Part shown: positions 1,410 through 63,899 of the stretch, piece by piece
Position numbering within the stretch: the first letter of the stretch is position 1
Layout of the letters: each line of letters starts with the position of its first letter
Sequence record: ON862890.1
From: Escherichia phage A221
Length of the DNA stretch: 64,000 nt
Strand: one strand, 5' to 3'
Program-made: the position numbers and the translations under genes
Notes under the pieces: model-generated
Told to the model about the DNA's origin: nothing
What the model saw: only the letters and a program-made list of their open reading frames with translations
Databases searched by the model: none

Positions 1410-2024
1410 ATGACGATGACAACGTTGAAGGCCATGGCCTTGTCCGTGACCTTTACCATTGCCAGCGGGAATGTGCACGCTTCCCAAAGTACCACCCAAT
1501 GTGATTATAATTTCTCCGAGCAACAACTTAATACGATGGCAACCGCCTATCACGTAGGCAAGACACAAGATCTTGGCTACACTCTGGCCGCCATATCTTG
1601 GCGTGAGAGCCGCGCTGGCGAAGATGTAGTGTCAATGCGATACGGCCTCAAGGCGGCCAACATGGGAGCCTTTCAGAACAAGGTGAAGACAGTTGGTGAT
1701 CGCGAAGGTTGTAAGAATCGCAAGTGCTATGCCAATGTCGCTATAAAGTTGCTGACCGACCAAGAATATGCCGCGCAAGCCGCCCTCGATGAGATGCAGT
1801 TCTGGCTGACCTATCACAATCAGAATATCCGCAAATCCCTCTCCTCTTACAATGCTGGCTTCGCCCGTAATCCTGCATCGAACGCTTATGCTGCCGACGT
1901 CGTGAAGAAAGCTAAATATCTTCAGAAATGTGTGTCCTTCGAAGGCCGGACCATCTCCGAGGTAGATCCTCAGGTGATCGCCATGAACAAGCACACAATA
2001 GAGAAACTGAAGAGGACAAGATAA
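1410..2024 (+). CDS. secreted lytic transglycosylase-like (SLT domain) protein
   Basis: N-terminal signal-peptide-like hydrophobic segment; SLT-like catalytic motif AISWRESR and downstream SYNAG; RBS AAGGAA. Confidence 0.5.
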   Translation: MTMTTLKAMALSVTFTIASGNVHASQSTTQCDYNFSEQQLNTMATAYHVGKTQDLGYTLAAISWRESRAGEDVVSMRYGLKAANMGAFQNKVKTVGDREGCKNRKCYANVAIKLLTDQEYAAQAALDEMQFWLTYHNQNIRKSLSSYNAGFARNPASNAYAADVVKKAKYLQKCVSFEGRTISEVDPQVIAMNKHTIEKLKRTR

Positions 2025-2662
2025 TGAACATCACTCCATCTCAGGCCGGATATGAACATATCTTGGTCTTCATTGCTCTACAGGGTGCGAAGGAAGGCAT
2101 CATCGTATCCGAGTACTCAGGTACGGTTCGCCTTGCTGATTATGTCGCACCGGAGGCATTTATCAAGAAGTGTATTGACGCATGGTGCCTCTATGCCCTC
2201 AGCACATACCCTGCTCCTCCTGAGGGTGAGCTGTTGTTTACTGTGCCGACTCCGGCTGTTGGCGATACAGACGCGATCTTTGCCGATATGCTGACCAAGG
2301 GGTATCTGGTGTATGACATCACCCACGATGTCTATTCCTTTACCTCACTGAACACCGTGTTTGGATTCACTATCACATCTGAAGCCAACATCCCTGACTG
2401 GGGCATCTTGGCTTGGGGTGTTGACGGCCTGGGTGCAACCTACGCATCGTCTGACGTCGGTGCGGTTCTGATTGATGAGGGTGTCACCATGGAGCAGTAC
2501 CTTGCCCAGTTCCCTCAGCACAATATCACAGGCAGCGACATCATTTTGGTCCAGCCTGGCGCTATCGCTCTCCCCCGTTTGGTGGATGGATGGAAGCCTC
2601 AGCTGAAGGACATCATCGCAGGTATTCGATCCCACATTCCGGTTGTGAATCTGACGCCGTAA
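2024..2662 (+). CDS. hypothetical protein
   Basis: ATG overlaps upstream stop (TAATG) indicating translational coupling; tool ORF began upstream in-frame. Confidence 0.5.
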   Translation: MNITPSQAGYEHILVFIALQGAKEGIIVSEYSGTVRLADYVAPEAFIKKCIDAWCLYALSTYPAPPEGELLFTVPTPAVGDTDAIFADMLTKGYLVYDITHDVYSFTSLNTVFGFTITSEANIPDWGILAWGVDGLGATYASSDVGAVLIDEGVTMEQYLAQFPQHNITGSDIILVQPGAIALPRLVDGWKPQLKDIIAGIRSHIPVVNLTP

Positions 2663-2675
2663 AAATAATTCAATA

Positions 2676-2700
2676 AAAGGGGCTTTCGCCCCTTTACTTC
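2676..2700 (+). terminator. rho-independent terminator
   Basis: Hairpin AAGGGGC-TTTC-GCCCCTT followed by T-rich TACTTCTTC. Confidence 0.6.
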
Positions 2701-2769
2701 TTCAATATCCTTCCCTATACTTCATTCCATAAGCAGTACGACACCGACTTGAATAGCAGGAACTATATC

Positions 2770-3045
2770 ATGAAAATTATCCTCGACGCATATATCCGCC
2801 ACGGTCAGAAATACCTGATGGCCAAGGTTTACGACGGCGAAGAATTGATCCACGCCCAGACCGCCCCAGCTGCCCAGCTGCGCGAAATCATGTCACGCGA
2901 CTTCCCTGGCGTTGAAATGGTAGAGCCTGCCAACCAGGCTGAAGTAGACAAAGAGTGGGAGCGCGAATGGAGTCCAGCGGCTATCGCTCGGGCTGAAAAG
3001 AATTGGTCTAACCGCGAAAACGCAAACCGCCCTTTCCGCCGTTAA
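2770..3045 (+). CDS. hypothetical protein
   Basis: ATG preceded by conserved AGGAACTATATC motif; tool start 2749 is TTG; E. coli-optimal codons. Confidence 0.5.
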   Translation: MKIILDAYIRHGQKYLMAKVYDGEELIHAQTAPAAQLREIMSRDFPGVEMVEPANQAEVDKEWEREWSPAAIARAEKNWSNRENANRPFRR

Positions 3046-3067
3046 TTTGAACCGAAGGAACTATATC

Positions 3068-3403
3068 ATGACACAACTCAAGAACTTCACCGCCGATGAC
3101 ATGTTTGCCTTCCAGGGTGCTGAGCACTTTGCTGACGGCTCCGTACCTCGCATCTACTACTTCTCCGACGAAGAAATGGAAGATTTCTTCTCCCTGATGG
3201 AAAAGGACTACGAACCAGACGACTTCGTTTATATCATCCATCACGCTGAAGGACTGACATTGGGTTGGACGGCCAACAACGAACCAGAAGAAGTAAACTT
3301 TCCTGAAGGTATCATGTCAGAGCGCGTCGAATATCTACTGGAAGCTCTGGACCCCCACACCCTCCCGCTCTGGGCGATGTCTGTAGCCCAAGTTCAAAAA
3401 TAA
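3068..3403 (+). CDS. hypothetical protein
   Basis: ATG preceded by AGGAACTATATC motif; tool start 3047 is TTG. Confidence 0.5.
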   Translation: MTQLKNFTADDMFAFQGAEHFADGSVPRIYYFSDEEMEDFFSLMEKDYEPDDFVYIIHHAEGLTLGWTANNEPEEVNFPEGIMSERVEYLLEALDPHTLPLWAMSVAQVQK

Positions 3404-3407
3404 GATA

Positions 3408-3432
3408 AGGGGGCTGACGCTCCCTTTTGGTT
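3408..3432 (+). terminator. rho-independent terminator
   Basis: GC-rich hairpin GGGGGC-TGAC-GCTCCC (one G-U wobble) followed by TTTTGGTTT. Confidence 0.5.
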
Positions 3433-3478
3433 TCGCTAATTAGAAGAAACCGCCGTTAATTCAGTCAGGAGATATAAA

Positions 3479-6199
3479 ATGTCAAAGCTAAGTTTCCTCC
3501 AGTTCATGCAGGAAAGAGATCAGTTGGACGAAGCGTTCAACTCCGCTCCGTATGAGCTGACCATGGGCAAGAAGAACGCAGGCGATGTGTTCTTCACCTT
3601 CATCGACGAAGATGAAAAGGAATACCGTATTCAGTTCTATACCCCTCAGGGGCTGGGTAAGAGTGTTCGTCAGGTTTTCATCGGCCAGAAGCGCGGCTCC
3701 GTCTATCCTGACGCCATCGCTCGCTTCAAGAACCCAATGCGCGTTATCGCTTCCATGATCGAAGCGACCAAACAATTCATGGCGACTCCTCTGGGTAAGA
3801 CCATCGATGGCTTTGCTGTCAACTTCTCTAAGAAAGCGCTGGATCGCGGTATGACCCTGATTCCTAAGATCATCCGCCAGTCCGGCCTGAAACAGAAACT
3901 GAATGTCATGGACCTGACCTACGCGCCTGTCCCCGACCGTGGTTATGTGTGGCTGGTCCGCAAGGGTAAAGATCCGGCGCAGGTATTTGACGGTCCGAAG
4001 ATGCAGGGTATCACCTGGGACGACCCAGACAAGGTCGGTGACGTTCCGGTTCAGAACAATACTCCGGATGTGGGTGTGTCATCTTCTGTTGATAATTCCA
4101 ACGGATGGAAATTAACTTCAAACGGGGATCAGCCCATGTTGTTATGGGCTGGTAAGGAGAGAGGCCGCATGAACACGGCAAATATCGCTCCCCACTACAA
4201 TGAGCCGGGCGTGTATGTTGGCGCATACATGAATGAGAAACCTGTGCGTGGGCAAAGTGCTGATTTCATTGCTCGTCAGTTGAAATTACCGCAAGTCCCT
4301 ATCAATATCCTGAATGATTTCACCATGGCGTCTACAAAATTTTGGAAAGGTTCTCAAAACAGTTCAGACAGAAATAACCCAGCCAACATTATCGGTTCTG
4401 GAACTGCTGTTATTGATGCCAAACGACTTGGTGCTCGAGAAGTAAACGTGGAACGATTCAAAAACGGTGTTCGCATGCGTTCTCAAAACGGTGACGTCGA
4501 CATCAGTATTTCCGACCCAGACTTTTCAAATGCAGCAAGTGCGACTGATGCTGCCACTGCCTCTGTTGTGGTCAAAAACGGGCGTTACGAAGGTGCCATC
4601 AATTCAAAGCGCAAGATTGCCCGCATCTCGAACGAGCAGGGTACTGAATGGGATATCATCGGTGTCAACGGGGAAACCCTTGTCTCTATCAAGTTGAACA
4701 AAGTGTCTAAATCCGCATCGGATTCGACCGAGGGTGCAACCAGTGTTGATCAATTACGTGACAGCGGTTTCATCGCTCGTGTTCTGGGTATCATTGATAC
4801 CAACGTTGGGCTGGACACTTCTATTCTTCCTGGTGAAAACATCCGTCGTGTGGGCGCTGGTCGTTACACGACAGCAGGCGGGTTGGTTATCGTTGTCAAC
4901 TTCACAAACGTCCTCGCTGGTTTCGTTCAATACTCAGTTTTCAGCGAAATTGCTGAAGAGGAGAGCGTGGCCAAAGGTAGCGCCCGTGACGTCGCCAATG
5001 CGGTAATTGCGTCCATCTTTGAGGTTGCCAAGACCCAGTACACTGGCAAATGGGAAATTAGCGCAGTGCCAACAAGCGCTCCATATCCTATCAAAGCCAT
5101 TCGCCGTTCTCGGGGCTGGGGTTATGTGGAAACCGCAAACTGGACTCTGACAGTGTCCGACGCTGTCCTGAATCGTGTGAAGCCAGGGAAAACTGCTCTA
5201 CTGGAACTCATCAAAGAACCTCCGCGTGGCAAGCACCCGCTGGAAATCATCCCAGAGAAGGGCGACAAGACCCTGATGCTGAAAGATCGTATTACCGGGG
5301 CCATCTATGGTTCTATCGACCTGAATGCCCAAGGCGCTGATCTGGTCAACTCTGGAACCCTGAAGATACCAAGCAACGCCATGGTGTTTGGTGAGACTGT
5401 CAACGGTATGTCCATCACTTGGTCTGGCGTCAATTTCCCGAAAACTGGGAAGTATGATGGTGCTGTATTGACCACGAATGTGACCTATTACTACGACAAA
5501 GGCAAAGTGGCGATCACGCCTATTGTATCCAATAAAGGTCGTACCCTGAACAATCCGAAGACATATGAACTTACTTTGAAGAAAGATATTGTTCAGGCCG
5601 TGATCGATGAAATTTCTTCTAAAATGGAAATGATATCTCGGAATATACAAACTCTGAAAAGCACGTCGTATAATCCGAAACAAGTATTTTTGGACGACAT
5701 TTCTGTTGACAACAACGGTTCAGTCCTTTGGCGCGGGTACGACATGGCGGATCGCCGCACTAATGAATTTATGTTGGGTATCCTGTCCAAAGAAACCGAG
5801 AGACTGGAGAAAGAGTCGAGTACTGCGAAGAAGACTGGTGCCGACCTTGCGGCATACGCCGACTCCATCCGCGACAACGCACCAAAAGGCCGCGACCTGG
5901 ATTGGCAGATCTATGCAAGCCGTGATGGTCAGACTCTGAACGTGGACTGGGATATCACCTTCCGCCGCAACACAACTGAAGGGGCATATCGCGAGTTCAA
6001 ATCTCAGATTGACCGCGCCAACCAGTACCTGCAGACTCTGTACCGGGATGCGAAGTCCAAGGGTTACAACCCGACTGAACCAAACCTGATGACTCTGGAT
6101 AGCGCCCAGCAGTCTGACCAGTGGGCACGAGACTACGGGGAAGGCGCATACAGCGAGTACGAGCAGTCCCTGGGTGGCAACATGCAGATTAAGATCTGA
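3479..6199 (+). CDS. large hypothetical protein (906 aa), function unknown
   Basis: Long ORF with RBS AGGAG; no polymerase or fiber motifs recognised; central third shows different codon choice from flanks. Confidence 0.6.
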   Translation: MSKLSFLQFMQERDQLDEAFNSAPYELTMGKKNAGDVFFTFIDEDEKEYRIQFYTPQGLGKSVRQVFIGQKRGSVYPDAIARFKNPMRVIASMIEATKQFMATPLGKTIDGFAVNFSKKALDRGMTLIPKIIRQSGLKQKLNVMDLTYAPVPDRGYVWLVRKGKDPAQVFDGPKMQGITWDDPDKVGDVPVQNNTPDVGVSSSVDNSNGWKLTSNGDQPMLLWAGKERGRMNTANIAPHYNEPGVYVGAYMNEKPVRGQSADFIARQLKLPQVPINILNDFTMASTKFWKGSQNSSDRNNPANIIGSGTAVIDAKRLGAREVNVERFKNGVRMRSQNGDVDISISDPDFSNAASATDAATASVVVKNGRYEGAINSKRKIARISNEQGTEWDIIGVNGETLVSIKLNKVSKSASDSTEGATSVDQLRDSGFIARVLGIIDTNVGLDTSILPGENIRRVGAGRYTTAGGLVIVVNFTNVLAGFVQYSVFSEIAEEESVAKGSARDVANAVIASIFEVAKTQYTGKWEISAVPTSAPYPIKAIRRSRGWGYVETANWTLTVSDAVLNRVKPGKTALLELIKEPPRGKHPLEIIPEKGDKTLMLKDRITGAIYGSIDLNAQGADLVNSGTLKIPSNAMVFGETVNGMSITWSGVNFPKTGKYDGAVLTTNVTYYYDKGKVAITPIVSNKGRTLNNPKTYELTLKKDIVQAVIDEISSKMEMISRNIQTLKSTSYNPKQVFLDDISVDNNGSVLWRGYDMADRRTNEFMLGILSKETERLEKESSTAKKTGADLAAYADSIRDNAPKGRDLDWQIYASRDGQTLNVDWDITFRRNTTEGAYREFKSQIDRANQYLQTLYRDAKSKGYNPTEPNLMTLDSAQQSDQWARDYGEGAYSEYEQSLGGNMQIKI

Positions 6200-6206
6200 T
6201 CATCGA

Positions 6207-6224
6207 AAGCCCCTTCGGGGGCTT
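6207..6224 (+). terminator. terminator-like hairpin overlapping late promoter
   Basis: Hairpin AAGCCCC-TTCG-GGGGCTT immediately after stop of 3479-6199. Confidence 0.45.
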
Positions 6225-6231
6225 ATAAATA
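6224..6231 (+). promoter_or_regulatory. T4-type late promoter box TATAAATA
   Basis: Exact TATAAATA about 24 nt upstream of ATG 6255. Confidence 0.5.
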
Positions 6232-6254
6232 ACTGAAATCCCGAGGAGATTAAG

Positions 6255-6560
6255 ATGAAACCGTTTATCGAATATTTTAAAGAACAAGCCGCTAAACCTC
6301 AGACCCATGCTGGTGTCCAGGGTAAGACCGTATCCATCACCAAGCAAGCTGACGGCACTCAGTGGTGCTCCGGTGCTACCGTGACCCAGATCACCCCTGA
6401 CAATCAGGCGGATGTCTACAACCTGGAGTTAACCAACGGCAACACTATCAAGGTGAAACTGACCCCAGACCAGACTCACGGTATCTCCCAAGGTCAGGAA
6501 GTCGTTGCTGTCCATGACGGTTTCGAATTCTTCTTTGGCAAGTCTGCCGACAAAGACTAA
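6255..6560 (+). CDS. hypothetical late protein (101 aa), probably virion-associated
   Basis: Follows perfect late promoter; RBS GAGGAG; strongly E. coli-optimal codons. Confidence 0.55.
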   Translation: MKPFIEYFKEQAAKPQTHAGVQGKTVSITKQADGTQWCSGATVTQITPDNQADVYNLELTNGNTIKVKLTPDQTHGISQGQEVVAVHDGFEFFFGKSADKD

Positions 6561-6600
6561 GTGAAACCATCAAGATGACTCTGGTCAAACAGTGATTACA

Positions 6601-6632
6601 ATCCCCCTAAATACAGGGGGATTTCTTTTTCT
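6601..6632 (+). terminator. rho-independent terminator
   Basis: Hairpin ATCCCCC-TAAATACA-GGGGGAT followed by TTCTTTTTCTG. Confidence 0.6.
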
Positions 6633-6645
6633 GAGGAAACAAATC

Positions 6646-6999
6646 ATGGTTAACGCGAGTATTTTCATCAACCGTGGACTGCTTGCTATAGCCCACTCTC
6701 ATGCCTTACACTTCGTTACAACGTCCTATGCCAAGCACAAGGCACTCGGGGAGTTCTACGGGGAACTGGAGGGCTTGCTGGACACGTTTACCGAAGCATA
6801 CATCGGTGCGGGTGGTCAGTATGTTCCATCATTCGAGAATATTAAATTGTACAACCCAGACCCTATCTCCTATATTAACAGTGTGGTGATAGACGTCGAT
6901 GGCATCTACAAGCAGTGTGACTCCCACCTTCAGAGCACTCTTGACGATATCAAGACACTGTGTTATCAGACGATCTACAAACTGAAGCAGCTGTCGTAA
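6646..6999 (+). CDS. hypothetical protein (possible ferritin/Dps-like helical fold)
   Basis: ATG with RBS GAGGAAAC after terminator; tool start 6592 is GTG inside the terminator hairpin; His-rich helical motif AIAHSHALHF. Confidence 0.45.
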   Translation: MVNASIFINRGLLAIAHSHALHFVTTSYAKHKALGEFYGELEGLLDTFTEAYIGAGGQYVPSFENIKLYNPDPISYINSVVIDVDGIYKQCDSHLQSTLDDIKTLCYQTIYKLKQLS

Positions 7000-7242
7000 G
7001 TCAATACGAAATAAAGGCATATAATTTGCTCATTATTCACCGAAAGGAAAGGACAATGAGCAAAATCTTTATCCCGTCACATGCGCAGCTACATGAATCT
7101 CTTGGACAACTTCGCCCACTTCGAGCACAACACGGCTGGTAAACAAATATTTTGTATAGAGGGCTTGTCGACCACTGTGTATAGCTCAAAGTCGTGATGT
7201 AGACTATACTGTGACCGAAGTGTTCCAGAGGCAGAAGATCTA

Positions 7243-8301
7243 ATGAAATTTCTTGATGAACAATTCATAAATTACGTTGCTCCCAGACTCGATAAATTCA
7301 AGTGGGAGCGCGTTGGTGCTGTCGCAAACTTCCGTTGTCCCCTGTGTGGAGATTCTCTCAAAAGTGCTAATAAGCGACGCGGTTATTTTTTCTTCGATCG
7401 AGATAATGACTGCTTCCGGTTTAAATGTCACAATTGCCATAACATGAATGGCTGGTCATTTGAGTTCTGGCTGAAGAAGTTCGACGAACGCCTCTCAACA
7501 GAGTACAACATGGAGAAGTTCCGTCTGCTGGGTGATACGTCGGGCAGACCACTTCCTTCCCTGAAGCCGTTGCCAAAGCTGACACAGACCGCCCGTATTG
7601 GCTCAGTGGCGGCGAAACGCGACGAGAGCCTCCTCGGCAATATGCTACGGCTTGATCTGCTACCGCCTGACCATAAGGCTCGACAGTACGTACAGTGGCG
7701 TGGACTGCCGGAGAGCGCTTTGTCCCTCCTGTATTACACACAGCACTTCCGCCAGGATCTACTCCAGTTCGAAACGAACCCTGAGAAGCAGCTGAAAATT
7801 CCCGATGACGAGCGCCTGGTAATCCCATTCTGGACTCAGGATGGTCGCATGAAGATCGTTCAGGGGCGTGCATTCGACAAGAATGCGACACTGCGCTACG
7901 CAACAGTCAAGCCCAAGGATGAAGACACTAAGGTGTATGGTGAAGACCGGGTGAACATTCACAAGACCAAGCTGGTTGTGGAAGGTCCGATTGACAGCCT
8001 GTTCCTACCCAACTGTCTTGCATCGGCCGACGCTGATCTACTGAGCGTGAAGGGTGACATTTATATCCCTGATAATCAGTACCGGAACCCGCAGGTGTGT
8101 GACAGTATTCAGAAGATGATAGATAAAGGTGTCAAAGTTGTACTGTTCCCACCAGACGTTCCTTGGAAGGATATCAACGACATGGTCATGCCATCAAAGG
8201 GCAACATGTCCATACAAGACCTCCTGAAACTGATCGCCAAGAACGTTTACCAAGGTATGGCTGCATCATTACAATTCGCTGAACTGAGGAAAGTGCGATG
8301 A
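7243..8301 (+). CDS. 61: DNA primase (T4 gp61-like)
   Basis: N-terminal zinc-binding motif FRCPLCGDS...KCHNCHN matching T4 gp61 CPVCGDS...HCYNC pattern; RBS GAGG. Confidence 0.75.
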   Translation: MKFLDEQFINYVAPRLDKFKWERVGAVANFRCPLCGDSLKSANKRRGYFFFDRDNDCFRFKCHNCHNMNGWSFEFWLKKFDERLSTEYNMEKFRLLGDTSGRPLPSLKPLPKLTQTARIGSVAAKRDESLLGNMLRLDLLPPDHKARQYVQWRGLPESALSLLYYTQHFRQDLLQFETNPEKQLKIPDDERLVIPFWTQDGRMKIVQGRAFDKNATLRYATVKPKDEDTKVYGEDRVNIHKTKLVVEGPIDSLFLPNCLASADADLLSVKGDIYIPDNQYRNPQVCDSIQKMIDKGVKVVLFPPDVPWKDINDMVMPSKGNMSIQDLLKLIAKNVYQGMAASLQFAELRKVR

Positions 8302-8504
8302 CGTTAGAAGAACTGAACAAACTGGACGACGGAGAGATCGTGCGGGGGTACTTGAAATCTCGTGAGGGGTATGTCTTATCTGGGGAAGAATCTCCGAGTT
8401 TCATCCACGGCTGGAAGAATGGTCAGGCGGACTTCCATGGGGTTCCCATCAGTGATGAGCAAGCCGAATTGGCTCACGAGTTTGTAAGATTTCGCCCGAA
8501 CTAA
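8298..8504 (+). CDS. hypothetical protein
   Basis: 68-aa ORF overlapping primase stop by 4 nt (translational coupling). Confidence 0.4.
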   Translation: MTLEELNKLDDGEIVRGYLKSREGYVLSGEESPSFIHGWKNGQADFHGVPISDEQAELAHEFVRFRPN

Positions 8505-8533
8505 AACTTTTTACTTCACATTACTTCCCTCCA

Positions 8534-8560
8534 GGCCTCATTCGACGAGGCCTTTTAAAA
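8534..8560 (+). terminator. rho-independent terminator
   Basis: Hairpin AGGCCTC-ATTCGAC-GAGGCCT followed by TTTTAAAA. Confidence 0.6.
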
Positions 8561-8569
8561 TACTTCAAA

Positions 8570-8589
8570 AATAATTTTTAAAAATTATT
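8570..8589. repeat. perfect 20-bp AT-only palindrome AATAATTTTTAAAAATTATT
   Basis: Sequence equals its own reverse complement; lies in AT-rich region upstream of promoter-like element. Confidence 0.6.
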
Positions 8590-8598
8590 GAAAAAGAC

Positions 8599-8627
8599 TT
8601 TACTCTTCAATAATGATGCACTATTAT
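8599..8627 (+). promoter_or_regulatory. sigma70-like promoter candidate TTTACT-N17-TATTAT
   Basis: -35/-10-like hexamers with 17-nt spacer, upstream AT-rich UP-like region. Confidence 0.3.
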
Positions 8628-8700
8628 AGTTCACATAGGGCGGCAACACACCGCCGAATGAAAAGTGAAACGCACCAACTACATTATGAGGAATTACATC

Positions 8701-9189
8701 ATGGCTACTACCAAAACTCTGATCACCAACGGCACCATCTCTTTCGAACTGAACACCGAAGTTGCTAAAGTTGAAATGTTCCGCATCGCTCAGGCGGCTG
8801 GCTTCACTGGTGGCAAAACTTCCTTCATGAACCTGCTGAACGGTAAAGTGAAATCGACTAACGGCTTCACCCTGGTAGAGCAGGTTGTGGTTGACAAAGC
8901 TGTGGTTGCTAAGACTGCTGACAAAGTTGGTATGCTGAAAAACCTGGGTCACGACATCCACATTGTCGAAGCAAGCACCGAAACTTACGGCACCATCGTA
9001 GTCGGTAAAGGTCGCATCCAGCTGAACCCGCTGAACAACGGTTCCTTCTCTGTGATGGTCTTCCCTAAGAAGGGGTATGACAACACCGACATCGTGAAAG
9101 CTGTTGGCGGCGAAGCAAAAGCTCAGTACGTCAAAATGGGTAAACTGAGCACCGACGCAGTTGAAGCTCTGGTGAGCAAACTGGCCTAA
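8701..9189 (+). CDS. hypothetical highly expressed protein (163 aa)
   Basis: RBS GAGG with GGAATTACATCATG start context; very strong optimal-codon bias; hairpin downstream; tool start 8665 is GTG. Confidence 0.55.
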   Translation: MATTKTLITNGTISFELNTEVAKVEMFRIAQAAGFTGGKTSFMNLLNGKVKSTNGFTLVEQVVVDKAVVAKTADKVGMLKNLGHDIHIVEASTETYGTIVVGKGRIQLNPLNNGSFSVMVFPKKGYDNTDIVKAVGGEAKAQYVKMGKLSTDAVEALVSKLA

Positions 9190-9203
9190 TCCATACGTGT
9201 AAC

Positions 9204-9226
9204 ATAGGGGAGGCAACTCCCCCTAT
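9204..9226 (+). terminator. stable hairpin (possible terminator or RNA-stability element)
   Basis: ATAGGGGAG-GCAA-CTCCCCCTAT stem-loop with GNRA-like loop; no clear U tract. Confidence 0.35.
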
Positions 9227-9373
9227 CAGGTCTTGGGAGGAGATCACAGTCATTCAATCCTCTTTAGGCGCTCTCTGGGTTGCTGACACATTCAGAACAA
9301 AGTCTCCCCCAGCTCCTCGAGTAGTTCACTTTCACTTTAAATACCTCTGCATTCATTGTGGAGGTATTTTCTT

Positions 9374-10168
9374 ATGGCCATTCTAAAACTTGGCAACCGT
9401 GGCACTGAAGTGAAGGCACTTCAGGATAGCCTCAACAAAATCGGCTTCACCCTCGTCGCTGATGGTGTCTTTGGCAAGGCAACAGAGAACGCCGTCAAGA
9501 CTGTTCAGGCGGGCGCGGGGCTTGTCATTGATGGTATCGTGGGTCCAAAGACCTCCTATGCTATTCGCAACGCCGGAGACGCCCATCAGGATCATCTAAC
9601 TGAGTCAGACCTGATTGATGCTGCTAACGATCTGGGTGTTGACCTTGCCTCTGTCAAGGCGGTGAATCAGGTTGAGTCGCGCGGCACGGGCTTCACCAAG
9701 TCAGGTAAGATCAAGACATTATTTGAGCGCCACATCATGTATAAGAAGCTGATGGCGAAGTTCGGACAGGCTCGGGCGAATGCCATGGGGCATATGTACC
9801 CGACGTTGGTCAACCCTTCTGCAGGCGGGTACACGGGCGGCGACGCGGAGTTGGATCGACTTCATGCGGCCATCAACATCGATGAGGATTGTGCGTACGA
9901 GAGCGCCTCTTACGGTCTCTTCCAGATCATGGGATTCAACTGCCAGGTCTGTGGATATGCCAACGCCAAGGAGATGTTCAACGACTTCCTGACAGGAGAA
10001 CGTGCTCATTTGATGGCATTCGTGAAGTTCATCAAGGCTGACGCCAAGCTCTGGCAGGCTCTGAAGGACAAGAACTGGGCTGAGTTTGCGCGGCGCTATA
10101 ATGGTCCGGCGTATGCCAAGAACCAGTACGACAAGAAGCTCACAGCAGCATACAAGAGTTTCAGTTAA
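9374..10168 (+). CDS. endolysin: N-terminal peptidoglycan-binding domain plus C-terminal N-acetylmuramidase-like (DUF3380) domain
   Basis: PG-binding-like repeat LQDSLNKIGF...DGVFGKATENAVKTVQ; C-terminal YGLFQIMGFN muramidase-family motif; RBS GGAGG. Confidence 0.7.
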   Translation: MAILKLGNRGTEVKALQDSLNKIGFTLVADGVFGKATENAVKTVQAGAGLVIDGIVGPKTSYAIRNAGDAHQDHLTESDLIDAANDLGVDLASVKAVNQVESRGTGFTKSGKIKTLFERHIMYKKLMAKFGQARANAMGHMYPTLVNPSAGGYTGGDAELDRLHAAINIDEDCAYESASYGLFQIMGFNCQVCGYANAKEMFNDFLTGERAHLMAFVKFIKADAKLWQALKDKNWAEFARRYNGPAYAKNQYDKKLTAAYKSFS

Positions 10169-10173
10169 CTCAA

Positions 10174-10198
10174 AGGCCGGAAACGGCCTTTTCTTTAT
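10174..10198 (+). terminator. rho-independent terminator
   Basis: Hairpin AGGCCG-GAAA-CGGCCT followed by TTTCTTTAT. Confidence 0.6.
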
Positions 10199-10270
10199 CC
10201 AATCCTCAGGTATGCTGGGGTTGTCACCTTAATTAGAGGTGATGACACCCTGAGATATAGGAAGGTTCCC

Positions 10271-11113
10271 ATGCAATCTGCCACCAAAGTTGTAAGTAAG
10301 AAGCCAGCGGGCAAGACCAAGTCAGCACGTAAGAAAGAGACAATCCAGAAAGAAGATGAATGGATGAAGTTCTCTAAAGGTGACTTCAGAATCGCTCCGT
10401 TCAATGGCCTCTCAGAAAATCAGAACCTCGCGTATCAATCTGCTCTTGAAGAAAACCTCACCATCGCAATCGGTCCGGCAGGCACAGGTAAATCGTATTG
10501 TGGTGCCTCAGCCGCCGCCAAGCTCCTGATCGATAAAGTGGTCAGTAAGATCGTCATCACGCGCTCTCCGCTGCCAACAGGCCAGACTGCAGGCTTCCGC
10601 CCTGGCGACACATACGAAAAACTGATGCCATATCTGATGCCCCTGATTCAGACACTGAAGAAGGTGCTGAAGACTGACACAGGCAGCGACGGTTTCTTCA
10701 ACTATCTGTGGGAGAAGCGGATCATTGAGATCCAGGATCTGGAGACCATCAAGGGAATGACCTTCGACGACACCTTCCTGATCATTGAAGAAGCGCAGGA
10801 ATGTGATATGGAGCAGCTGAAGAACCTACTGACCCGCGCATCCGACTCGACTTACATCTTCGTCAACGGTGACATCAAACAGTCCAACAAGCGCCTGCGC
10901 GACAGCGCCCTTGAAAAGTACGTCAGTTCCTTCCGCGACTTCAACGCCAAGCTGGAGACCGGAACCCTGAAGATCGATGGTGTTGGCGTCGGTGATGAGT
11001 ACCCTGAATGGGTTCAGCCGTTCAGTATCATCGAGTTCGACAAGTCTGACCGCAACGGGCGCGGCGACTTCACCCGCCTGATGCTGGAAGTCAACGATCT
11101 GTACGACATTTAA
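10271..11113 (+). CDS. phoH: PhoH-like ATPase
   Basis: Walker A GPAGTGKSY and PhoH-like architecture; RBS AGGAAGG. Confidence 0.85.
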   Translation: MQSATKVVSKKPAGKTKSARKKETIQKEDEWMKFSKGDFRIAPFNGLSENQNLAYQSALEENLTIAIGPAGTGKSYCGASAAAKLLIDKVVSKIVITRSPLPTGQTAGFRPGDTYEKLMPYLMPLIQTLKKVLKTDTGSDGFFNYLWEKRIIEIQDLETIKGMTFDDTFLIIEEAQECDMEQLKNLLTRASDSTYIFVNGDIKQSNKRLRDSALEKYVSSFRDFNAKLETGTLKIDGVGVGDEYPEWVQPFSIIEFDKSDRNGRGDFTRLMLEVNDLYDI

Positions 11114-11196
11114 GTAACTCGCCAACCCTCCCCGCCGCCTTCAATCTACGAGGGCGGCGTATAATAAAACCTGCGTAAACAAACCCGAGGAACACC

Positions 11197-13479
11197 ATGA
11201 TTAACGTTATAAAACGTGACGGATCTTCTGTCCCATTTGATATTGAGAAACTACACGCAGTCGTAGACCGCGCCTGTGATGGCCTGTCTGGTGTGTCAAT
11301 GTCAGAGGTGATCGCTGCATCGAAGATTCAGTTCACCGACAACATGAGAACAGATCGCATTCAGGATATCCTCATCCAGGCTGCGGCTTCACTGATCTCT
11401 GTAGACAAACCCAATTACCAGTATGTGGCTGCTCGTCTGAAGTCGTATGATCTGCGCAAGGCTGTCTATGGCCAGTACAAGCCGCCTCACCTGCTGGATA
11501 TCTTCGTCAAGAACATCAAACAGCGCGTGTATGATCGTGAGTTCCTTGATCTCTACACGACCGAAGAGTTCAACGAGCTGAACGATGTCATCAACCACAA
11601 ACGCGATAAGAACTTCACGTGGGCGGCCATGGGCCAGCTGACAGAGAAGTATCTGCTGCGCGACCGTTCCAAGAAAGACAGCAAGATCTACTACGAAACC
11701 CCTCAGGTCATGTACATGGGCATCTCCATGGCGTTGTTCTCTAACTGGGACAAAGACAGCCGCCTGGAGATGGTGAAAAAGTTCTATGAATATGCCAGCA
11801 CAGGCAAGTTCAGTCTTCCCACCCCGATTATGGCAGGTGTTCGTACTCCTACCCGTCAGTTTAGTTCCTGTGTGTTAATCAAGACTGATGACACCCTGAA
11901 CTCTATCAACGCAACAGCCAAGACCATCGTTGACTATGTGTCCAAACGTGCGGGTATCGGCTTCGACGTCGGGGCAATCCGTGGGATTGGTAGTCCTATT
12001 CGCGGTGGAGAGATGGTTCACACAGGCCTGATCCCGTTCATCAAGTATCTCACTGGGGCACTCAAATCGTGCTCTCAGGGCGGCATTCGTGGTGGTGCAG
12101 CAACAGCGTACATCCCTCTGTGGCATTACCAGTTCGATGACGTCGTTGTTCTGAAGAACAACCGTGGTACTGAAGAAAACCGCGAACGCCGTATCGACTA
12201 TGGCATTCAGATCAACCGCGTGATGTTTGAGCGCCTTGTTGCCAAGCAGCCTCTGTATCTGTTCGACCCGAAAGACAACCGCGAAATGTATGAAGCATAC
12301 TTCGCTGACGTTGACAAGTTCCGTACTCTGTATGAGAACATGATCAAGGCCGCTGATGCTGGTTTGGTTCGTGCTAAAAAGTTGCAGGCAGAAGAGGTGT
12401 TCCAGATGCTGTTGGACCAGCGTTCAGACACAGGCCGCATCTACATCGCGTTTGTCGATCACATGAATGAATATAGTCCATTCAACCTAGACACGATTTA
12501 TTCTTCAAATCTTTGTTTAGAAATCGCCCTACCGACCCGTGAGTTTGAGCAGTACAACGATGAAAACGGGCGCGTGGCTCTGTGCACCCTGGCTTCCTTC
12601 AACCTGACGGCGTTCGAAGATCCTACGGAAATGGAAGACGTGGCGTTCGTGTTGGTGTCTGCGCTGGACATGCTGTTGGAATATCAGGACTATCCAGCGA
12701 TTCAGGCTCGTAAAGCTGTTGAAGACTATCGTCCTCTGGGTGTTGGTATCGTGAACGTGGCTCACTTCTTGGCCAAGAACTTCACGGGCTATGGCTCACC
12801 AGCTGGTCTTGAAATGCTGGATGCGTGGATGGCACACCTGCACTTCTATCTGGTCAAGGCGTCCAACCGTCTGGCTATGAAGTTCGGGGCGTGTAAACGC
12901 AGAACCATCCATAATAATGGGCAGGTCACCGCCGACCTTCAGCCGCTTCCACTTGATATCCTACCAAATGGCAAGAAGCCAGAAGGGATGGCATACGGGC
13001 TGGATTGGGATGGGTTGAAGGATAATCTGAAGACCTATGGTATCCGCAACGCCACCCTGCTGGCAGTAGCCCCTACCGAAAGCTCCTCACAGGTCCTCAA
13101 CGCAACGAACGGCATTGAGCCACCGAAGGGCTTGGTGAGCATCAAGGGTAGCAAGGACGGCACTTATAAGCAGGTCGTCCCGGACGTTGAGACCCTTGGA
13201 CCGATGTATGACCTCAAGTGGGACCTGGACTGTATTGAGTACCTGAAGACCGCTGCTGTCATCCAGCGCTGGGTTGACCAGTCCATCAGTACCAACACGT
13301 GGTATGACCCAGAGAAGTACCCTGACAGCAAGATCCCTCGCGCCAAGATGATGCAAGATATCCTGTCGTTCTATATGTGGGGTGGCAAGACTCTGTATTA
13401 CAACACAAACAAGGACGCCAAGGAAGACGAAGAGCTGAAGCAGGCTGAGGAAACTCAGTGCGATAGTTGTGTTGTATAA
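11197..13479 (+). CDS. nrdA: ribonucleotide reductase class Ia large subunit
   Basis: 760 aa; N-terminal MINVIKRDGS...FD similar to T4 NrdA MQLINVIKSSG; C-terminal redox-active Cys pair CDSC in tail. Confidence 0.9.
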   Translation: MINVIKRDGSSVPFDIEKLHAVVDRACDGLSGVSMSEVIAASKIQFTDNMRTDRIQDILIQAAASLISVDKPNYQYVAARLKSYDLRKAVYGQYKPPHLLDIFVKNIKQRVYDREFLDLYTTEEFNELNDVINHKRDKNFTWAAMGQLTEKYLLRDRSKKDSKIYYETPQVMYMGISMALFSNWDKDSRLEMVKKFYEYASTGKFSLPTPIMAGVRTPTRQFSSCVLIKTDDTLNSINATAKTIVDYVSKRAGIGFDVGAIRGIGSPIRGGEMVHTGLIPFIKYLTGALKSCSQGGIRGGAATAYIPLWHYQFDDVVVLKNNRGTEENRERRIDYGIQINRVMFERLVAKQPLYLFDPKDNREMYEAYFADVDKFRTLYENMIKAADAGLVRAKKLQAEEVFQMLLDQRSDTGRIYIAFVDHMNEYSPFNLDTIYSSNLCLEIALPTREFEQYNDENGRVALCTLASFNLTAFEDPTEMEDVAFVLVSALDMLLEYQDYPAIQARKAVEDYRPLGVGIVNVAHFLAKNFTGYGSPAGLEMLDAWMAHLHFYLVKASNRLAMKFGACKRRTIHNNGQVTADLQPLPLDILPNGKKPEGMAYGLDWDGLKDNLKTYGIRNATLLAVAPTESSSQVLNATNGIEPPKGLVSIKGSKDGTYKQVVPDVETLGPMYDLKWDLDCIEYLKTAAVIQRWVDQSISTNTWYDPEKYPDSKIPRAKMMQDILSFYMWGGKTLYYNTNKDAKEDEELKQAEETQCDSCVV

Positions 13480-13535: not shown

Positions 13536-13549
13536 ATCAGGAAAGAAAC

Positions 13550-14894: not shown

Positions 14895-14920
14895 AAGCCC
14901 CTCATTGAGGGGCTTTACTT
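14895..14920 (+). terminator. rho-independent terminator
   Basis: Hairpin AAGCCCCTC-ATT-GAGGGGCTT followed by TACTTCTAT. Confidence 0.55.
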
Positions 14921-14992
14921 CTATAATCCCTGCGCTTATACTTCCCAGTAATTCATTGGCATTCGCCACAAATTGAAAGCGGGAACTATATC

Positions 14993-15454
14993 ATGACAAA
15001 CAAAGTACTCACCAACCCACTGCACAACTTCGGTTACATTCAACTCCCTCTGGTGATCGACACCCTGTACGCCGACGACAAAGAAGAGATCTGCTGGTCA
15101 CCCACCGCACTGATTGAACGCGAAATCTTCAAGTCTGTTGTTGATGTCATGTTCCGTATCGGTCGCAATGGACCTCTGGTCTACCTCGGCAAGGTGACTG
15201 AGTTGAAGACAAGCCACAACGAACGCTTCCTTCGTATCGATACAACGGGGTGCTCTCATCAGGACTTCAACACATTGCGCAATTATGTTCTGGTCAACCG
15301 CCCGGTCAGTCAACACCGCCCGTATCTGACTTCAATGCACATCGACAATTTCATCACCGACGTGCACCTCCGCGCCGAAACCCTCCATGAAGAGGAAACA
15401 GGCCGAGCTATCGACACAGTCTTAAATATGGTTGTGATCACCCTGGCGGAGTAG
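14993..15454 (+). CDS. hypothetical protein
   Basis: Start in GGGAACTATATCATG conserved context. Confidence 0.5.
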   Translation: MTNKVLTNPLHNFGYIQLPLVIDTLYADDKEEICWSPTALIEREIFKSVVDVMFRIGRNGPLVYLGKVTELKTSHNERFLRIDTTGCSHQDFNTLRNYVLVNRPVSQHRPYLTSMHIDNFITDVHLRAETLHEEETGRAIDTVLNMVVITLAE

Positions 15455-24748: not shown

Positions 24749-24810
24749 TTCTATAACCCGTTCCGAGGGATAATTCGTGAACAGGTAATCCTAAATGATG
24801 AGGCTATAAC

Positions 24811-33861: not shown

Positions 33862-33976
33862 GTCAATAGAACACCAAGAAGCCCAGTCAAGTACTGGGCT
33901 TTTTAACTTCAATAACTTTACTTTCAAGAAATAATCGCCTAATATTTAATCTGTATTGAAGAGTTACAACTACATC

Positions 33977-35182
33977 ATGAGGCTGGAAATGAACGTCAAA
34001 ACATTCAATATTCCGATCGACAATGGAGGGTTGGTAGTTGAGCGACTGAAGAAGCTCGAGCGCACTGCCGAAAGGCTGGGTGTTCCGTTTCCGACCGTGA
34101 CTTATGGTGAACCCTTCAAAACCCACACCCGCGACTTCACTGGTGAGATCCTTACTCACTGGTGGAAACCTGTTACTCTCGAAGGCGAAGGCATTGACCG
34201 CCCCATCTCTTATGGTGGCTGGAAGATCATCGGTCAGTTCAATCACGAATATCCAAAGGTTATTCTTAACCGCCTGTCCGACAACATCAATCCCGACTTC
34301 ATCCGTCGCTTCGAGGCAGAGAACGTCTCTTGGTGCCAGCATTGCAATCTAGCCATCCGTCGCAAGAACACATATGTGATTGAAAATGAGGAAACACACA
34401 CCCAGATGCTGATTGGTAGCACCTGTATGCATCATTATGTGCCTCATCAGAAATCGCTTGACGCGATTATGTCTTACTATCTGGAAATCCAAGAGTTCTT
34501 CATGCCAGACGAGGACGATCCAGAGGGTATATATCGCGTCCAAAATGAGCGCTTCACCGACACCCACAGTTTCCTGCGCGCATGCTTCCAGGTGATGCTG
34601 GCAGGCGTGGATATCAAGTCTGAACTGTTTGACAAAGTACTGGGCTATGTCCGGTCTCACCAGAAACCAAAAGCAGGTTCCGATGAAGAGTATTTCGTAA
34701 ACAAGGCACACGAATACCGTGAAGATGCCGAGTCGGAAATGTACCATATGAAGCTCTTCATCAGTGCGCTGTCCGAATCTAATGAGTTCAATGTTCGCCT
34801 GAAACGCATGTGTGAACCCGGCTATCACCTCATCAAGGATAACAACACAGTCCGCTGGGGTGCCAAGAAGTATTACGATTACATCCATCGTCCTCGTACT
34901 GACCGCAAGGTGGAGAACAAATGGGTGGGTGAAGTCGGTGAAATGCTGGAAGTGCAAGTCAGGTTCGACAAGCGCACCTTTCTCTTCTCCAATGAATATG
35001 GTGATAGTTACCTGTTTACTTTCAAAACAGCAGAAGGCAATACAATTACCTGGAAGACCTCTTATATGGATACAGAGTTCTTGCAGGGCGATATGATCAT
35101 CCGTGGTCGTGTCAAAGAACTGACTGAGTACAACGGCGTTAAACAAACTCAGGTCACCAGAGCCAAATTGAGGAAATTATGA
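33977..35182 (+). CDS. hypothetical protein (about 401 aa) with Cys/His cluster
   Basis: ATG in AACTACATCATGAGG conserved context; CQHCN ... CMHH motif; tool start 33956 is TTG. Confidence 0.5.
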   Translation: MRLEMNVKTFNIPIDNGGLVVERLKKLERTAERLGVPFPTVTYGEPFKTHTRDFTGEILTHWWKPVTLEGEGIDRPISYGGWKIIGQFNHEYPKVILNRLSDNINPDFIRRFEAENVSWCQHCNLAIRRKNTYVIENEETHTQMLIGSTCMHHYVPHQKSLDAIMSYYLEIQEFFMPDEDDPEGIYRVQNERFTDTHSFLRACFQVMLAGVDIKSELFDKVLGYVRSHQKPKAGSDEEYFVNKAHEYREDAESEMYHMKLFISALSESNEFNVRLKRMCEPGYHLIKDNNTVRWGAKKYYDYIHRPRTDRKVENKWVGEVGEMLEVQVRFDKRTFLFSNEYGDSYLFTFKTAEGNTITWKTSYMDTEFLQGDMIIRGRVKELTEYNGVKQTQVTRAKLRKL

Positions 35183-38286: not shown

Positions 38287-38503
38287 CAAGAAGTACATGT
38301 ACAAGGTTCTGCTGAGCCTCGGGGTGTCACAATCTGGGCTGGCTCGTTTATTGGATTGTTCTAATGTTGTGAACTACTGGGCGAAGGGTTATCGTGTTGT
38401 CCCCCGCTCCTTCCGTCGCTTCATCCTGGTGTTACAGTTCATCAAGAAGAAAGGGCTGATGGAAGAGTTATTGCAATTTATTAAAGAAGAGGAACGCAAA
38501 TGA
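38252..38503 (+). CDS. hypothetical protein, possible HTH
   Basis: LGVSQSGLARLL helix-turn-helix-like segment; overlaps neighbours. Confidence 0.35.
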   Translation: MSLRMKELPVNDKKYMYKVLLSLGVSQSGLARLLDCSNVVNYWAKGYRVVPRSFRRFILVLQFIKKKGLMEELLQFIKEEERK

Positions 38504-39195
38504 ACTATACCCGAGCGTTGGTTTCTATCCTTGAAAGGTCTTATTCTCGCAATCTGATTGGGTATTCAGAAAGACACCATAAAGAACCCAGGAGCTTGGG
38601 AGGGACTGATACTGCGGAGAATATTGCTGTTCTAACTGCTCGGGAACATTTCATAGTTCACAAACTTTTGGCCAAGATATTCAGTACGTCTCCTGCATAC
38701 GTGAAAATCTTTTCTTTGATGAGAAATATATCAAAATCACAAACTTCACGTCAATACGAAGAGTTCGCTCTCAGAAAATGGGAAAGGGTGAAGACAGCCA
38801 ACAGTACTCCAGAGTTTAAACAAAAATGCAGTGAAAGATTCAAGGGGGTGGCGTTATCCCGTGAACACAGATCGAAAATTTCCGATTCGCTGATGGGCAG
38901 ACCCAAATCAGATTCACAACGTTCCAAATTAAAACAAATCCATTCAAAGCCTTGGGAAAGTCCAAATGCGACACATACCCGCAAATATTGGGCTTTGGCA
39001 GGAATATTCTATGATTGGTGGGTAGCCGATGGTGCCAGGTTAGGCATATGTCGAAATGTAACGATGGTCAAGGAATTGGGGGTGGATCGCGCCGAAATGA
39101 CCGCCAAAAGTTGCATACAAAGATTTCAAAAAGGATGGGTGCCGTACAATGATGAGAATTGGGTTAAGTTTTTCGAGGAAATGAAAAATGCGTGA
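38500..39195 (+). CDS. HNH homing endonuclease (intact, free-standing)
   Basis: HNH motif ERHHKEPRSLGGTDTAENIAVLTAREH; C-terminal domain homologous to 54632-54835; RBS GAGGAA. Confidence 0.8.
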   Translation: MNYTRALVSILERSYSRNLIGYSERHHKEPRSLGGTDTAENIAVLTAREHFIVHKLLAKIFSTSPAYVKIFSLMRNISKSQTSRQYEEFALRKWERVKTANSTPEFKQKCSERFKGVALSREHRSKISDSLMGRPKSDSQRSKLKQIHSKPWESPNATHTRKYWALAGIFYDWWVADGARLGICRNVTMVKELGVDRAEMTAKSCIQRFQKGWVPYNDENWVKFFEEMKNA

Positions 39196-54639: not shown

Positions 54640-55463
54640 TATTATCTCCGTAAAATTTCAACCAGGCGGGATCTTCTTTTGGTATCCAACCTTTCTGAAA
54701 TTTAGATATACAAGTTTGAGCTGTGGCCTTAGAACAAACAGAGCTTAACCCGGTTTCTTTCAACATTAAACAATAACGGTTCTTCACTTTGTCTTCACCG
54801 TTACTATACCACCATTCAAAGAATTCACCAGCCAAGAGCCATTGTCGGGATTTACCCGTCTTTACGACAGTCGGGTGTTCCCCAAGGTTGTATGTTATTC
54901 ATGGGATTGTTCTGGCGCCACATAGCAGAATACCTCTCCCTTTCTTCTGGTCGCCTCATCCGTTCGGTGACTGATTTGGTAAGATTGGCTTTGTGTGCTT
55001 CGGAGTGTGGTATCCCTTTCCTGGATTTTGACAACCTGCGCCTTGATTCGTCATTCCAAGTGTAACCTCTCAAGCTATCCGCACGTTTCTTCTGTACTTC
55101 TGGGTTCAATGAGTTTTTCTTGGATTGCTTACGACAACGTTCCTTTTGTTCATCAGATGACATCACTTCTTTCATTCTGGTGGAATTATTTCTCCTCAAT
55201 TCCCCAAACTCTTTGTTGTTCCTAGACATGTTGTTCATCCCAGTCCATGCCTTCCTGATACCGGGGTTGAGTGGTTTTGTTCTCCAAAGTAGGTGATGTA
55301 CGACATAATGTTCTTCTGGTGTCAACCATACAAGATTAGAGAAGTGGTTAGTGCCACCCAAGCACACAGGGATTATATGGTGGCGTTCTTGATAAACGCC
55401 ATCCATTTTACCTCTCTGTATTGCTCTCTGTATGAGAGCGTCTAAGATGATTTCGTATTTCAT
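54632..55463 (-). pseudogene. HNH homing endonuclease disrupted by frameshift near 54850-54857
   Basis: N-terminal ORF has HNH motif HHIIPVCLGGTNHFSNLVWLTPEEH; C-terminal ORF in +1 frame is homologous to C-terminus of intact paralog 38500-39195; total length not a multiple of 3. Confidence 0.6.
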
Positions 55464-56526: not shown

Positions 56527-56568
56527 GATGTAGTTTCTCAAATCAAAGTATTGCTGTGTGTAGTGAAA

Positions 56569-57312: not shown

Positions 57313-57380
57313 TTGGTGTATCCTCAGTTAGGTTCCGCTCATGGGGAACGGGTCCATTATACACCAAATGCTGGAAATGA

Positions 57381-61061: not shown

Positions 61062-61092
61062 CTTGTAGTTCCCACGTTGGTTAACAGGACTA

Positions 61093-63849: not shown

Positions 63850-63899
63850 AGTATAGAAATCCTATCAATGTCAAAGGGGAACATATTGGTTGAGTGGGT

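Follow-up and report, generated by a model that had tools for sequence, protein, structure and literature searches.

A translation start motif that recurs along the 64,000-nt stretch of phage DNA analysed here in full (the window) is probably the conserved 3′ end of PeSL-like cassettes for early expression and recombination that are specific to the Ackermannviridae. The cassette runs, in this order, from a GC hairpin through a promoter candidate, TTTACT-N17-TATACT, and a leader of ∼45 nt to TTGAA-N4-RGGAACTATATC-ATG. An earlier note on this DNA, made from the letters alone, had offered two readings of the motif, a shared translational operator or a duplicated gene-start cassette, and it is the second that the follow-up supports: repeated regulatory cassettes have the motif at their 3′ end, and among relatives it is where gene deletions and replacements have their junctions.

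Judged by its database matches, the window is from an Agtrevirus-like Ackermannviridae phage. The best megablast matches to positions 2000–12000 are Agtrevirus-like Ackermannviridae with 92–98% identity (277 phage records), among them Escherichia phage RPN242, Salmonella phage CECAV_050, and Shigella phage Ag3. The window follows the order of Ag3 between about 1 and 67 kb, read as reverse complement, with rIIA/rIIB at the right end and gp46 at the left end, and its GC content is ∼0.49–0.50 along the whole length. Two complete relatives were used for comparison, Ag3 and Vi01, the latter from a different subfamily than the former.

All eight motif sites listed in the earlier note are present, six at the exact coordinates and two off by 2 and 4 nt: CAACTACATTATG is found at 8676–8688 (given as 8674) and CAACTACATCATG at 33967–33979 (given as 33963). 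The count of “eight or more genes” holds for the sites, whereas the genes served are seven, because 8686 and 8701 are tandem copies before one gene. A further site had been overlooked, the rIIA start at 63849 on the minus strand, which carries the variant CTATACTATG. When the window was searched for GGAACTAYATCATG with at most two mismatches, 9 matches were found versus 0.92 expected, and none of 100 shuffles reached 9; the core CTAYAYYATG gave 7 matches versus 0.72 expected, with 0 of 100 shuffles as high, and these shuffles rule out a chance origin of the motif. All seven core matches sit on the ATG of ORFs of 91–918 aa. The note had proposed that the frequency of the motif inside coding regions be compared with that at starts, and the outcome favours the motif finding: no core copy lies within a gene of the window, and the copies fall at ORF starts in 14 of 14 cases in Ag3 and in 13 of 15 in Vi01, each genome having 13–14 motif copies. 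A match at 39411 was discarded as an internal chance hit, with ATT instead of ATG, and the site AAGGAACGCCATCATG at 1410 is a real gene start, yet too diverged to count as a copy.

The conservation had been described as continuing past the Shine-Dalgarno sequence (SD) through the spacer and the start codon. This was confirmed, and it reaches further than claimed, from a TTGAA ∼9 nt upstream of the core to the A(C) that follows the ATG. The full start module is ∼25 nt long and reads TTGAA-N4-RGGAA-CTATATC-ATG-A(C); an unbiased repeat search likewise returned a 25-nt family, TTGAATAGCAGGAACTATATCATGA, whose five copies make it the largest family of direct repeats in the window. In most copies the end of TGAA is 7–10 nt from the core, and the N4 between TTGAA and the SD varies freely, while the core changes by T/C swaps only, at three positions, with the A positions constant and no G. 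The SD is AGGAA, GGGAA, or GAGAA, or is absent. The TGA of TTGAA does not act as an in-frame stop, as its phase to the ATG varies (19–20 nt). The copies in the window and the elements that go with them are the following:

2679–2692, plus strand: GC-rich, terminator-like hairpin GGGGC-TTTC-GCCCC of cassette 1, abutting the −35 box.
2693–2721, plus strand: candidate sigma-70-like early promoter TTTACT-N17-TATACT of cassette 1, a consensus match with presumed activity.
2749–2773, plus strand: start module TTGAATAGCAGGAACTATATCATGA before the 91-aa ORF 2770–3045; left repeat of the RPN242 deletion.
3047–3071, plus strand: start module TTGAACCGAAGGAACTATATCATGA before the 111-aa ORF 3068–3403; right repeat of the RPN242 deletion, with no promoter of its own.
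8599–8627, plus strand: candidate promoter TTTACT-N17-TATTAT of cassette 2, by consensus match.
8638–8655, plus strand: leader hairpin GGGCGG-N7-CCGCC of cassette 2, downstream of the −10 box.
8665–8703, plus strand: tandem module, GTGAAACGCACCAACTACATTATG (no SD) followed by AGGAATTACATCATG at the true start 8701.
14897–14913, plus strand: terminator-like hairpin of cassette 3, abutting the −35 box.
14914–14942, plus strand: candidate promoter TTTACT-N17-TATACT of cassette 3, its hexamers invariant in eight phages of three genera.
14943–14996, plus strand: leader of cassette 3, ending in the module TTGAAAGCGGGAACTATATCATGA and near-invariant across genera.
33881–33899, plus strand: terminator-like hairpin of cassette 4.
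33917–33945, plus strand: candidate promoter TTTACT-N17-TAATAT of cassette 4, by consensus match.
33956–33991, plus strand: module without SD, TTGAAGAGTTACAACTACATCATG, followed by AGGCTGGAAATG.
56523–56547, minus strand: module variant TTTGATTTGAGAAACTACATCATGA at the start (56526) of the 162-aa ORF 56038–56526, with no promoter of its own.
61058–61085, minus strand: diverged form of the module, GTTAACCAACGTGGGAACTACAAGATGA, at the start of rIIB (61061), with a hairpin ahead of it at 61102–61085.
63846–63874, minus strand: variant TTGACATTGATAGGATTTCTATACTATGA at the rIIA start (63849).

The motif is also evident in the complete relatives. In an annotation-free test of the 7-mers found directly before ATG, CTATATC was the most over-represented one in the whole genome of Ag3 (9/20, p = 3.5e-11) and likewise in that of Vi01 (8/32, p = 1.3e-7). 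In the window alone, exact CTATATC before ATG (3/12, p = 1.3e-3) is not significant after multiple testing, and the significance of the motif rests on the degenerate core and on the whole genomes rather than on the exact 7-mer in the window. At the predicted gene starts of Ag3 and Vi01, positions −7 to −4 hold ∼0 bits of information in non-motif genes, versus ∼2 bits per position from −7 to −1 in the motif class, which comprises 13 of the 159 Ag3 genes and 11 of the 154 of Vi01. This class, which is small at 11–14 genes per genome, is also informative at −20 to −16 (TTGAA) and at +4 to +7 (ACAA), with AC at +4/+5 enriched (p = 0.004 and 0.0014). The bit profile, taken with the information in TTGAA and at +4 to +7, therefore describes a discrete unit of ∼25 nt and not the tail of a general preference.

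Such a general preference does exist in a weak form, with ATC at −3 to −1 in 21 of 146 non-motif genes of Ag3 and 21 of 143 of Vi01, i.e., ∼14% in these phages; since +4 is often A, many starts hold the palindrome TCATGA. It is one of the points in favour of another reading, namely that selection for an optimal stand-alone ribosome-binding site has produced the motif convergently, so that neither common descent nor recombination matters. Besides the weaker ATC preference being general in Ag3 and Vi01, this reading draws on the fact that all the motif genes have an intergenic gap upstream and for this reason need de novo initiation, and on the lack of structure in the start regions. Indeed, the folding of seven of these was no better than that of shuffled sequences (z from −0.59 to +1.95), no hairpin including the motif is shared among the seven, and the whole window gave no Rfam match at gathering thresholds; the absent Rfam match and the lack of a stable fold rule out a structured RNA element. 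Convergence would leave unexplained, however, why one heptamer dominates when many A/U-rich heptamers should initiate equally well, and why the late genes gp23, gp18, gp19, gp20, and gp22, which are presumably highly expressed, do not use the motif. In addition, paralogous cassettes share ∼100 nt of homology upstream, which therefore speaks for copying rather than convergence, and gene-exchange junctions lie exactly in the module. On this balance, we regard convergence as improbable. By inspection, no consistent fit across the copies was found for other translational signals, such as pairing with the 16S rRNA 3′ end extended beyond AGGA, the T7 epsilon enhancer, and the ARN motifs of CsrA or Hfq.

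The layout of the cassettes was read from the 130 nt upstream of each copy. Five copies of the window end a composite cassette, those at 2770, 8701, 14993, 33977, and rIIA, and the order given at the outset is found at 2679–2773, at 14897–14996, at 33881–33980, and in the region upstream of rIIA, which holds a hairpin and a TATTAT box towards 63975. The cassette at 8599–8703 differs in that its hairpin comes after the −10 box, within the leader; in Vi01 the loop of this hairpin is altered and its stem retained. Its tandem module serves the 162-aa ORF 8701–9189. The Ag3 and Vi01 copies include a second layout, made of a −10 box, a GC hairpin, TTTGAA, SD, CTATATC, and ATG. By our reading of 10 pattern hits, the motif follows four of the five plausible early-promoter candidates in plus-strand intergenic regions. 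The copies at 3068, 56526, and 61061, which lie 22–36 nt behind the preceding gene, consist of the short module only, with no promoter or adjacent terminator, and the repeated unit is therefore the start module and not the whole PeSL. Another small repeat family of the window is a pair of hairpins with their flanks, at 57374–57401 and 59452–59479, which are 89% identical, GAA(A/C)TGAAAA(A/G)GAGGCCGGAGCCTC(T/C)TT, and are probably terminators of minus-strand early operons.

Cassette 3, whose module opens the 153-aa ORF 14993–15454, is found in 220 phage records at no less than 84% identity. When it was aligned across eight phages of Agtrevirus, Limestonevirus, and Kuttervirus, the hexamers and the leader were nearly invariant and the promoter spacer was variable, while a small hairpin in the leader (TGGC-N4-GCCA, 14957–14968) kept its stem and changed its loop. 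An exact scan of IMG/VR for TGAA-N4-AGGAACTATATCATG returned 27 hits, mostly on contigs of 152–162 kb and, in two cases, on fragments of less than 10 kb.

The presence of promoter candidates in the cassettes also bears on whether the motif itself could be a signal in the DNA, be it a phage middle or late promoter, a transcription-factor site, or the target of a homing endonuclease. The motif is indeed strand-specific and located upstream of or at genes, its TTGAA and TATAT-like pieces bear a superficial likeness to −35 and −10 boxes, and the gp45 copy is upstream of the SD. Yet only ∼9 nt separate TTGAA from TATATC and the core abuts the ATG, so that a transcript begun at the motif would lose the SD and the start codon, and sigma-70-type promoter candidates already occur ∼45 nt further upstream in the same cassettes. 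TTGAA...TATATC is thus excluded as a promoter by its spacing, the late box CTAAATA being moreover different and distant; as the motif abuts the ATG, it is not the promoter of the gene that it precedes. The late promoters of the family, (C/T/A)TAAATA at 35–45 nt ahead of late genes, differ from the motif, and the same position next to the ATG sets it apart from a T4-type late promoter (TATAAATA-like, gp55/gp33, ∼35–45 nt upstream). The motif was found at none of the 21 late or structural gene starts inspected in Ag3, and the homing endonuclease insertions of the region are not at the motif. All this makes a DNA-level signal highly improbable.

In the window and in Ag3, (C/T/A)TAAATA is often followed by CCTTC at 35–45 nt upstream of late genes, and in the window such boxes are located at ∼9335–9345, ∼1912–1920, and ∼24789–24795; the one before the endolysin reads TTTAAATACCTCTGC, and a CTAAATA box occurs just upstream of the ATG at 1928.

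Evidence that the module takes part in gene exchange comes from the joins seen among relatives. RPN242 is without the 91-aa ORF 2770–3045, and there the upstream flank of copy 1 (the module at 2749–2773) joins the coding sequence behind copy 2 (3047–3071), with the deletion junction falling within the shared AGGAACTATATCATGA, in a stretch of 28 nt common to both copies. In Kuttervirus phages a different gene, of 77 aa, is inserted directly after the ATGAC of cassette 3, as seen in Vi01, PM10, and phage 38. Upstream and downstream flanks were also clustered separately for the 27 IMG/VR loci and the reference genomes. The upstream cassette of the 2693 type (∼95 nt) precedes four unrelated ORFs (MKIILDAY..., MTQLKNF..., MNAIKTDF..., and MTKTELNN...), the cassette of the Ag3-100472 type precedes three, and one ORF was also found behind different cassette alleles, so that the joins are many-to-many; in every one of them the homology switches immediately after the ATG. 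On its far side, the variable slot behind cassette 1 is bounded by a conserved terminator together with the intergenic stretch before a 906-aa ORF. Read across these genomes, the joins show genes being swapped with their promoter and start wiring apparently kept.

The genes that carry the motif are also those that tend to differ between relatives. Among Ag3 genes, 6 of 13 motif genes have no homologue in Vi01 versus 16 of 175 others (odds ratio 8.5, p = 0.0013), and in the reverse comparison 5 of 11 motif genes of Vi01 have none in Ag3 versus 17 of 180 others (p = 0.0038); the enrichment persists for ORFs shorter than 200 aa. Chained BLAST alignments of the window with RPN242, CECAV_050, Ag3, and Vi01 gave ∼15 distinct clean indels, two of which have their junctions in the module (the RPN242 deletion and the Kuttervirus 77-aa insertion) and one further at an SD, in the nrdA–nrdB gap. 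The remaining ∼12 are away from the motif and are either homing endonuclease insertions or events inside genes. Since most indels are not at the motif, the module is one route of gene flux and not the main one.

Several of these indels deserve a brief description. At 13542–13549, an ORF of ∼97 aa that RPN242, Ag3, and Vi01 have between nrdA and nrdB is missing from the window; the left junction coincides exactly with the SD AGGA, and the beginning of the inserted gene reads AGGAGTTCTATATG, a loose relative of the motif. At 7073–7081, ∼416–425 bp are missing compared with RPN242, CECAV_050, and Ag3, with a 9-nt microhomology at the junction; the gap is inside a gene of ∼203 aa upstream of the primase, annotated in relatives as “hypothetical” or “DNA repair protein”, and as its length is not a multiple of 3, this gene is probably truncated in this phage. 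Relatives' annotations assign the ORFs 54852–55463 and 38500–39195 to an HNH and a MobE-like homing endonuclease, respectively. The HNH ORF is absent from Ag3 at the same position (an 845-bp indel, window 54621–55467), and Ag3 has endonuclease insertions that are missing from the window, e.g., 729 bp at window position 10238.

A further group of copies no longer appears to sit at a working start. The modules at 8686 and 33977 have no SD, and the real starts are likely 12–15 nt downstream of them. Behind the 8686 module come a further, partial copy and then the real start; the 33977 module and that of Vi01 gp051 are followed by AGG...ATG, the module ATG being out of frame in Vi01. Behind the 33977 module the true start is likely 33989, of an ORF of ∼397 aa that ends at 35182, and the PHROG profile match to the 33977 ORF begins at residue 5. 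From their arrangement, these SD-less copies look like relics of recombination joins.

They also matter for the other reading of the earlier note, a translational operator comparable to those of RegA or RegB. In T4, RegA sites are found on regA and on the start regions of genes 44, 62, and 45, the best known being those at the starts of regA itself, gene 44, and gene 62; rIIA and rIIB are classical targets as well. T4 RegA operators are loosely defined and A/U-rich, and proteins of this type need single-stranded RNA. Applied to this phage, the module would be a sequence-specific translational operator of an early-gene regulon, in which a phage RNA-binding protein reads TTGAA...CUAUAUCAUGA and shuts off or activates the regulon; the RegA homologue is the obvious candidate, and the recombination joints would be a side effect. 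The homologue is clear in relatives (Ag3 gp137, PF01818, 118.7 bits; Vi01_132c is annotated regA), its gene being outside the window. The core is conserved far more strictly than an SD with an A/U-rich spacer would require, with its ∼2 bits at −7 to −1 against ∼0 elsewhere; it tolerates only U/C changes, without any G or any change of an A, and the end of TGAA keeps a fairly fixed distance of 7–10 nt from it. The motif region is predicted to be single-stranded, as its folds are no better than shuffled ones, rIIA and rIIB carry motif variants, and gp45 has TTGAA-N4-ACTATAT just upstream of its SD.

Nevertheless, although the earlier note's operator gains from the RegA homologue of the relatives, the start regions of regA, gp44, and gp62 lack the core, and known RegA sites are loosely A/U-rich and not a sharp 10–15-mer. 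The modules at 8686, 33977, and Vi01 gp051 lie upstream of a functional SD and start, and for copies so displaced the relic of a recombination joint is therefore a better fit than an operator. Recombination and ordinary selection on the start region already explain most of the features. We thus hold it rather unlikely that the module is the operator of a post-transcriptional regulon in which the RegA homologue, or another factor, reads TTGAA-N9-CUAYAYY-AUG-A. The analogy with RegB-type cleavage failed altogether: the motif has GGAA and not the GGAG that RegB cleaves, which rules out a cleavage site of this type, and no RegB is annotated in Ag3 or Vi01. On the other hand, a core that stays constant beside a free N4 is not explained by recombination alone and points to a sequence-specific constraint. 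As an observation apart, the copy upstream of gp45 (Ag3 93768–93738, Vi01 92295–92264) reads TTGAACCCCACTATAT, directly before the SD and with no adjacent ATG, and is conserved across the two subfamilies; this could be a remnant of the module or reflect a function of the core that is independent of the start codon.

Coming back to the PeSL-like cassette as the preferred reading, its parts could work together as follows. The full cassette would combine a GC hairpin acting as terminator or attenuator, a sigma-70-like promoter (TTTACT-N17-TATAYT), a leader of ∼45 nt, and the module of ∼25 nt, while the module alone would serve some promoter-distal genes. On the mRNA, the ribosome-binding region formed by the module would be poor in G and free of structure, with its SD at a distance of 8 nt from the AUG, and would allow the early expression of a gene without translational coupling to the one before it. 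Because the same 15–28 nt recur at many gene starts, the recombination system of the phage could cross over between copies, and each crossover would delete, insert, or replace the gene behind a copy while leaving a working promoter and start region in place. Repeated exchange, together with selection on the start region, may then keep the copies alike. In effect, accessory early genes would plug into the module as into a socket, which would make it the equivalent, in the Ackermannviridae, of the PeSL cassettes of T4-like phages.

If so, the module offers a sequence-level handle on how the Ackermannviridae, which include the ViI, CBA120, LIMEstone, and Ag3 groups used in biocontrol and therapy, gain and lose accessory early genes without broken expression. 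It also carries the PeSL idea beyond the T4-like phages, the shared unit being the translation start region itself. In practice, the module could be used as a marker of variable gene slots in new genomes, as an aid in correcting start-codon annotation, e.g., at 33977/33989, and as a site that lends itself naturally to the insertion of payload genes for early expression. Should the operator reading prove true, a captured foreign gene would gain at once an early promoter and a programmed shut-off or activation, which would turn the module into a regulated plug-and-play socket for accessory genes, and a specific regulator reading it would define an early regulon that has so far gone unrecognised.

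Among the known systems, T4 RegA operators are similar in being sites on early mRNAs that overlap the start codon in single-stranded, A/U-rich RNA, and differ in that several module copies here are displaced from the functional start. As with T4 RegB sites, the module lies in the SD region of early genes; unlike them, its conserved part is the spacer and not the SD, which is GGAA or GAGA. The modular theory holds that lambdoid phages carry conserved boundary or linker sequences between modules, and these too are short, conserved intergenic crossover points for non-homologous gene exchange. They are not, however, unified start regions of which one genome has 10–15 copies, and the phages that carry them are temperate and recombine by other systems.

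The closest match is with the PeSLs of T4-like phages, for which the comparison set was RB49/phi1, T4/PST, and KVP40/nt-1 (Arbiol et al. 2010, PMC2839356; Comeau et al. 2014, PMC4122927). These elements combine a stem-loop with a sigma-70-like early promoter, have an SD and a start codon at their 3′ end, and are concentrated near variable ORFs; the crossovers mapped in RB49 fall between the −10 box and the ATG (PMC2839356, PMC4122927). The full cassettes of the window have every feature that characterizes a PeSL at the level of sequence. A stem-loop is near or within the early promoter candidate (five window copies; absent at 3068 and 56526), with the hairpins at 2679–2692, 14897–14913, and 33881–33899 bordering on the −35 box, and the candidates at 2693, 8599, 14914, and 33917, TTTACT-N17-TATACT/TATTAT/TAATAT, match in sequence the T4/PST form TTTACW-N17-TAYWAT (PMC2839356, PMC4122927). 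The SD and start codon of the downstream gene are at the 3′ extremity of the element, many dispersed copies occur beside small variable or accessory ORFs, and the junctions of indels and replacements between relatives fall in the element. Tandem or degraded copies are present as well, the SD-less ones resembling the slipped or degraded PeSL copies that the PeSL authors ascribed to slippage (PMC4122927).

The differences are equally instructive. The hosts of the cassette are the Ackermannviridae, a distant branch of the T4 superfamily, and its best-conserved shared part is the block made of TTGAA and SD-spacer-ATG-A/C rather than the promoter or the stem-loop; this block also stands alone at promoter-distal genes (3068, 56526, and rIIB). 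A further PeSL trait is excision as mini-circles, which was followed by inverse PCR on infected cells (PMC2839356). The PeSL literature searched makes no link to the Ackermannviridae, the genome papers of Ag3 and LIMEstone list promoters and terminators and do not mention the motif, a literature search for the string AACTATATCATG returned unrelated papers only, and one for transcriptome or ribosome-binding-site work on the Ackermannviridae returned nothing relevant. Set against this record, the cassettes constitute a clear and so far undescribed case, particular to this family, of modular regulatory cassettes whose start region is conserved to an unusual degree, and the module is an extension of the known PeSL idea rather than a new principle.
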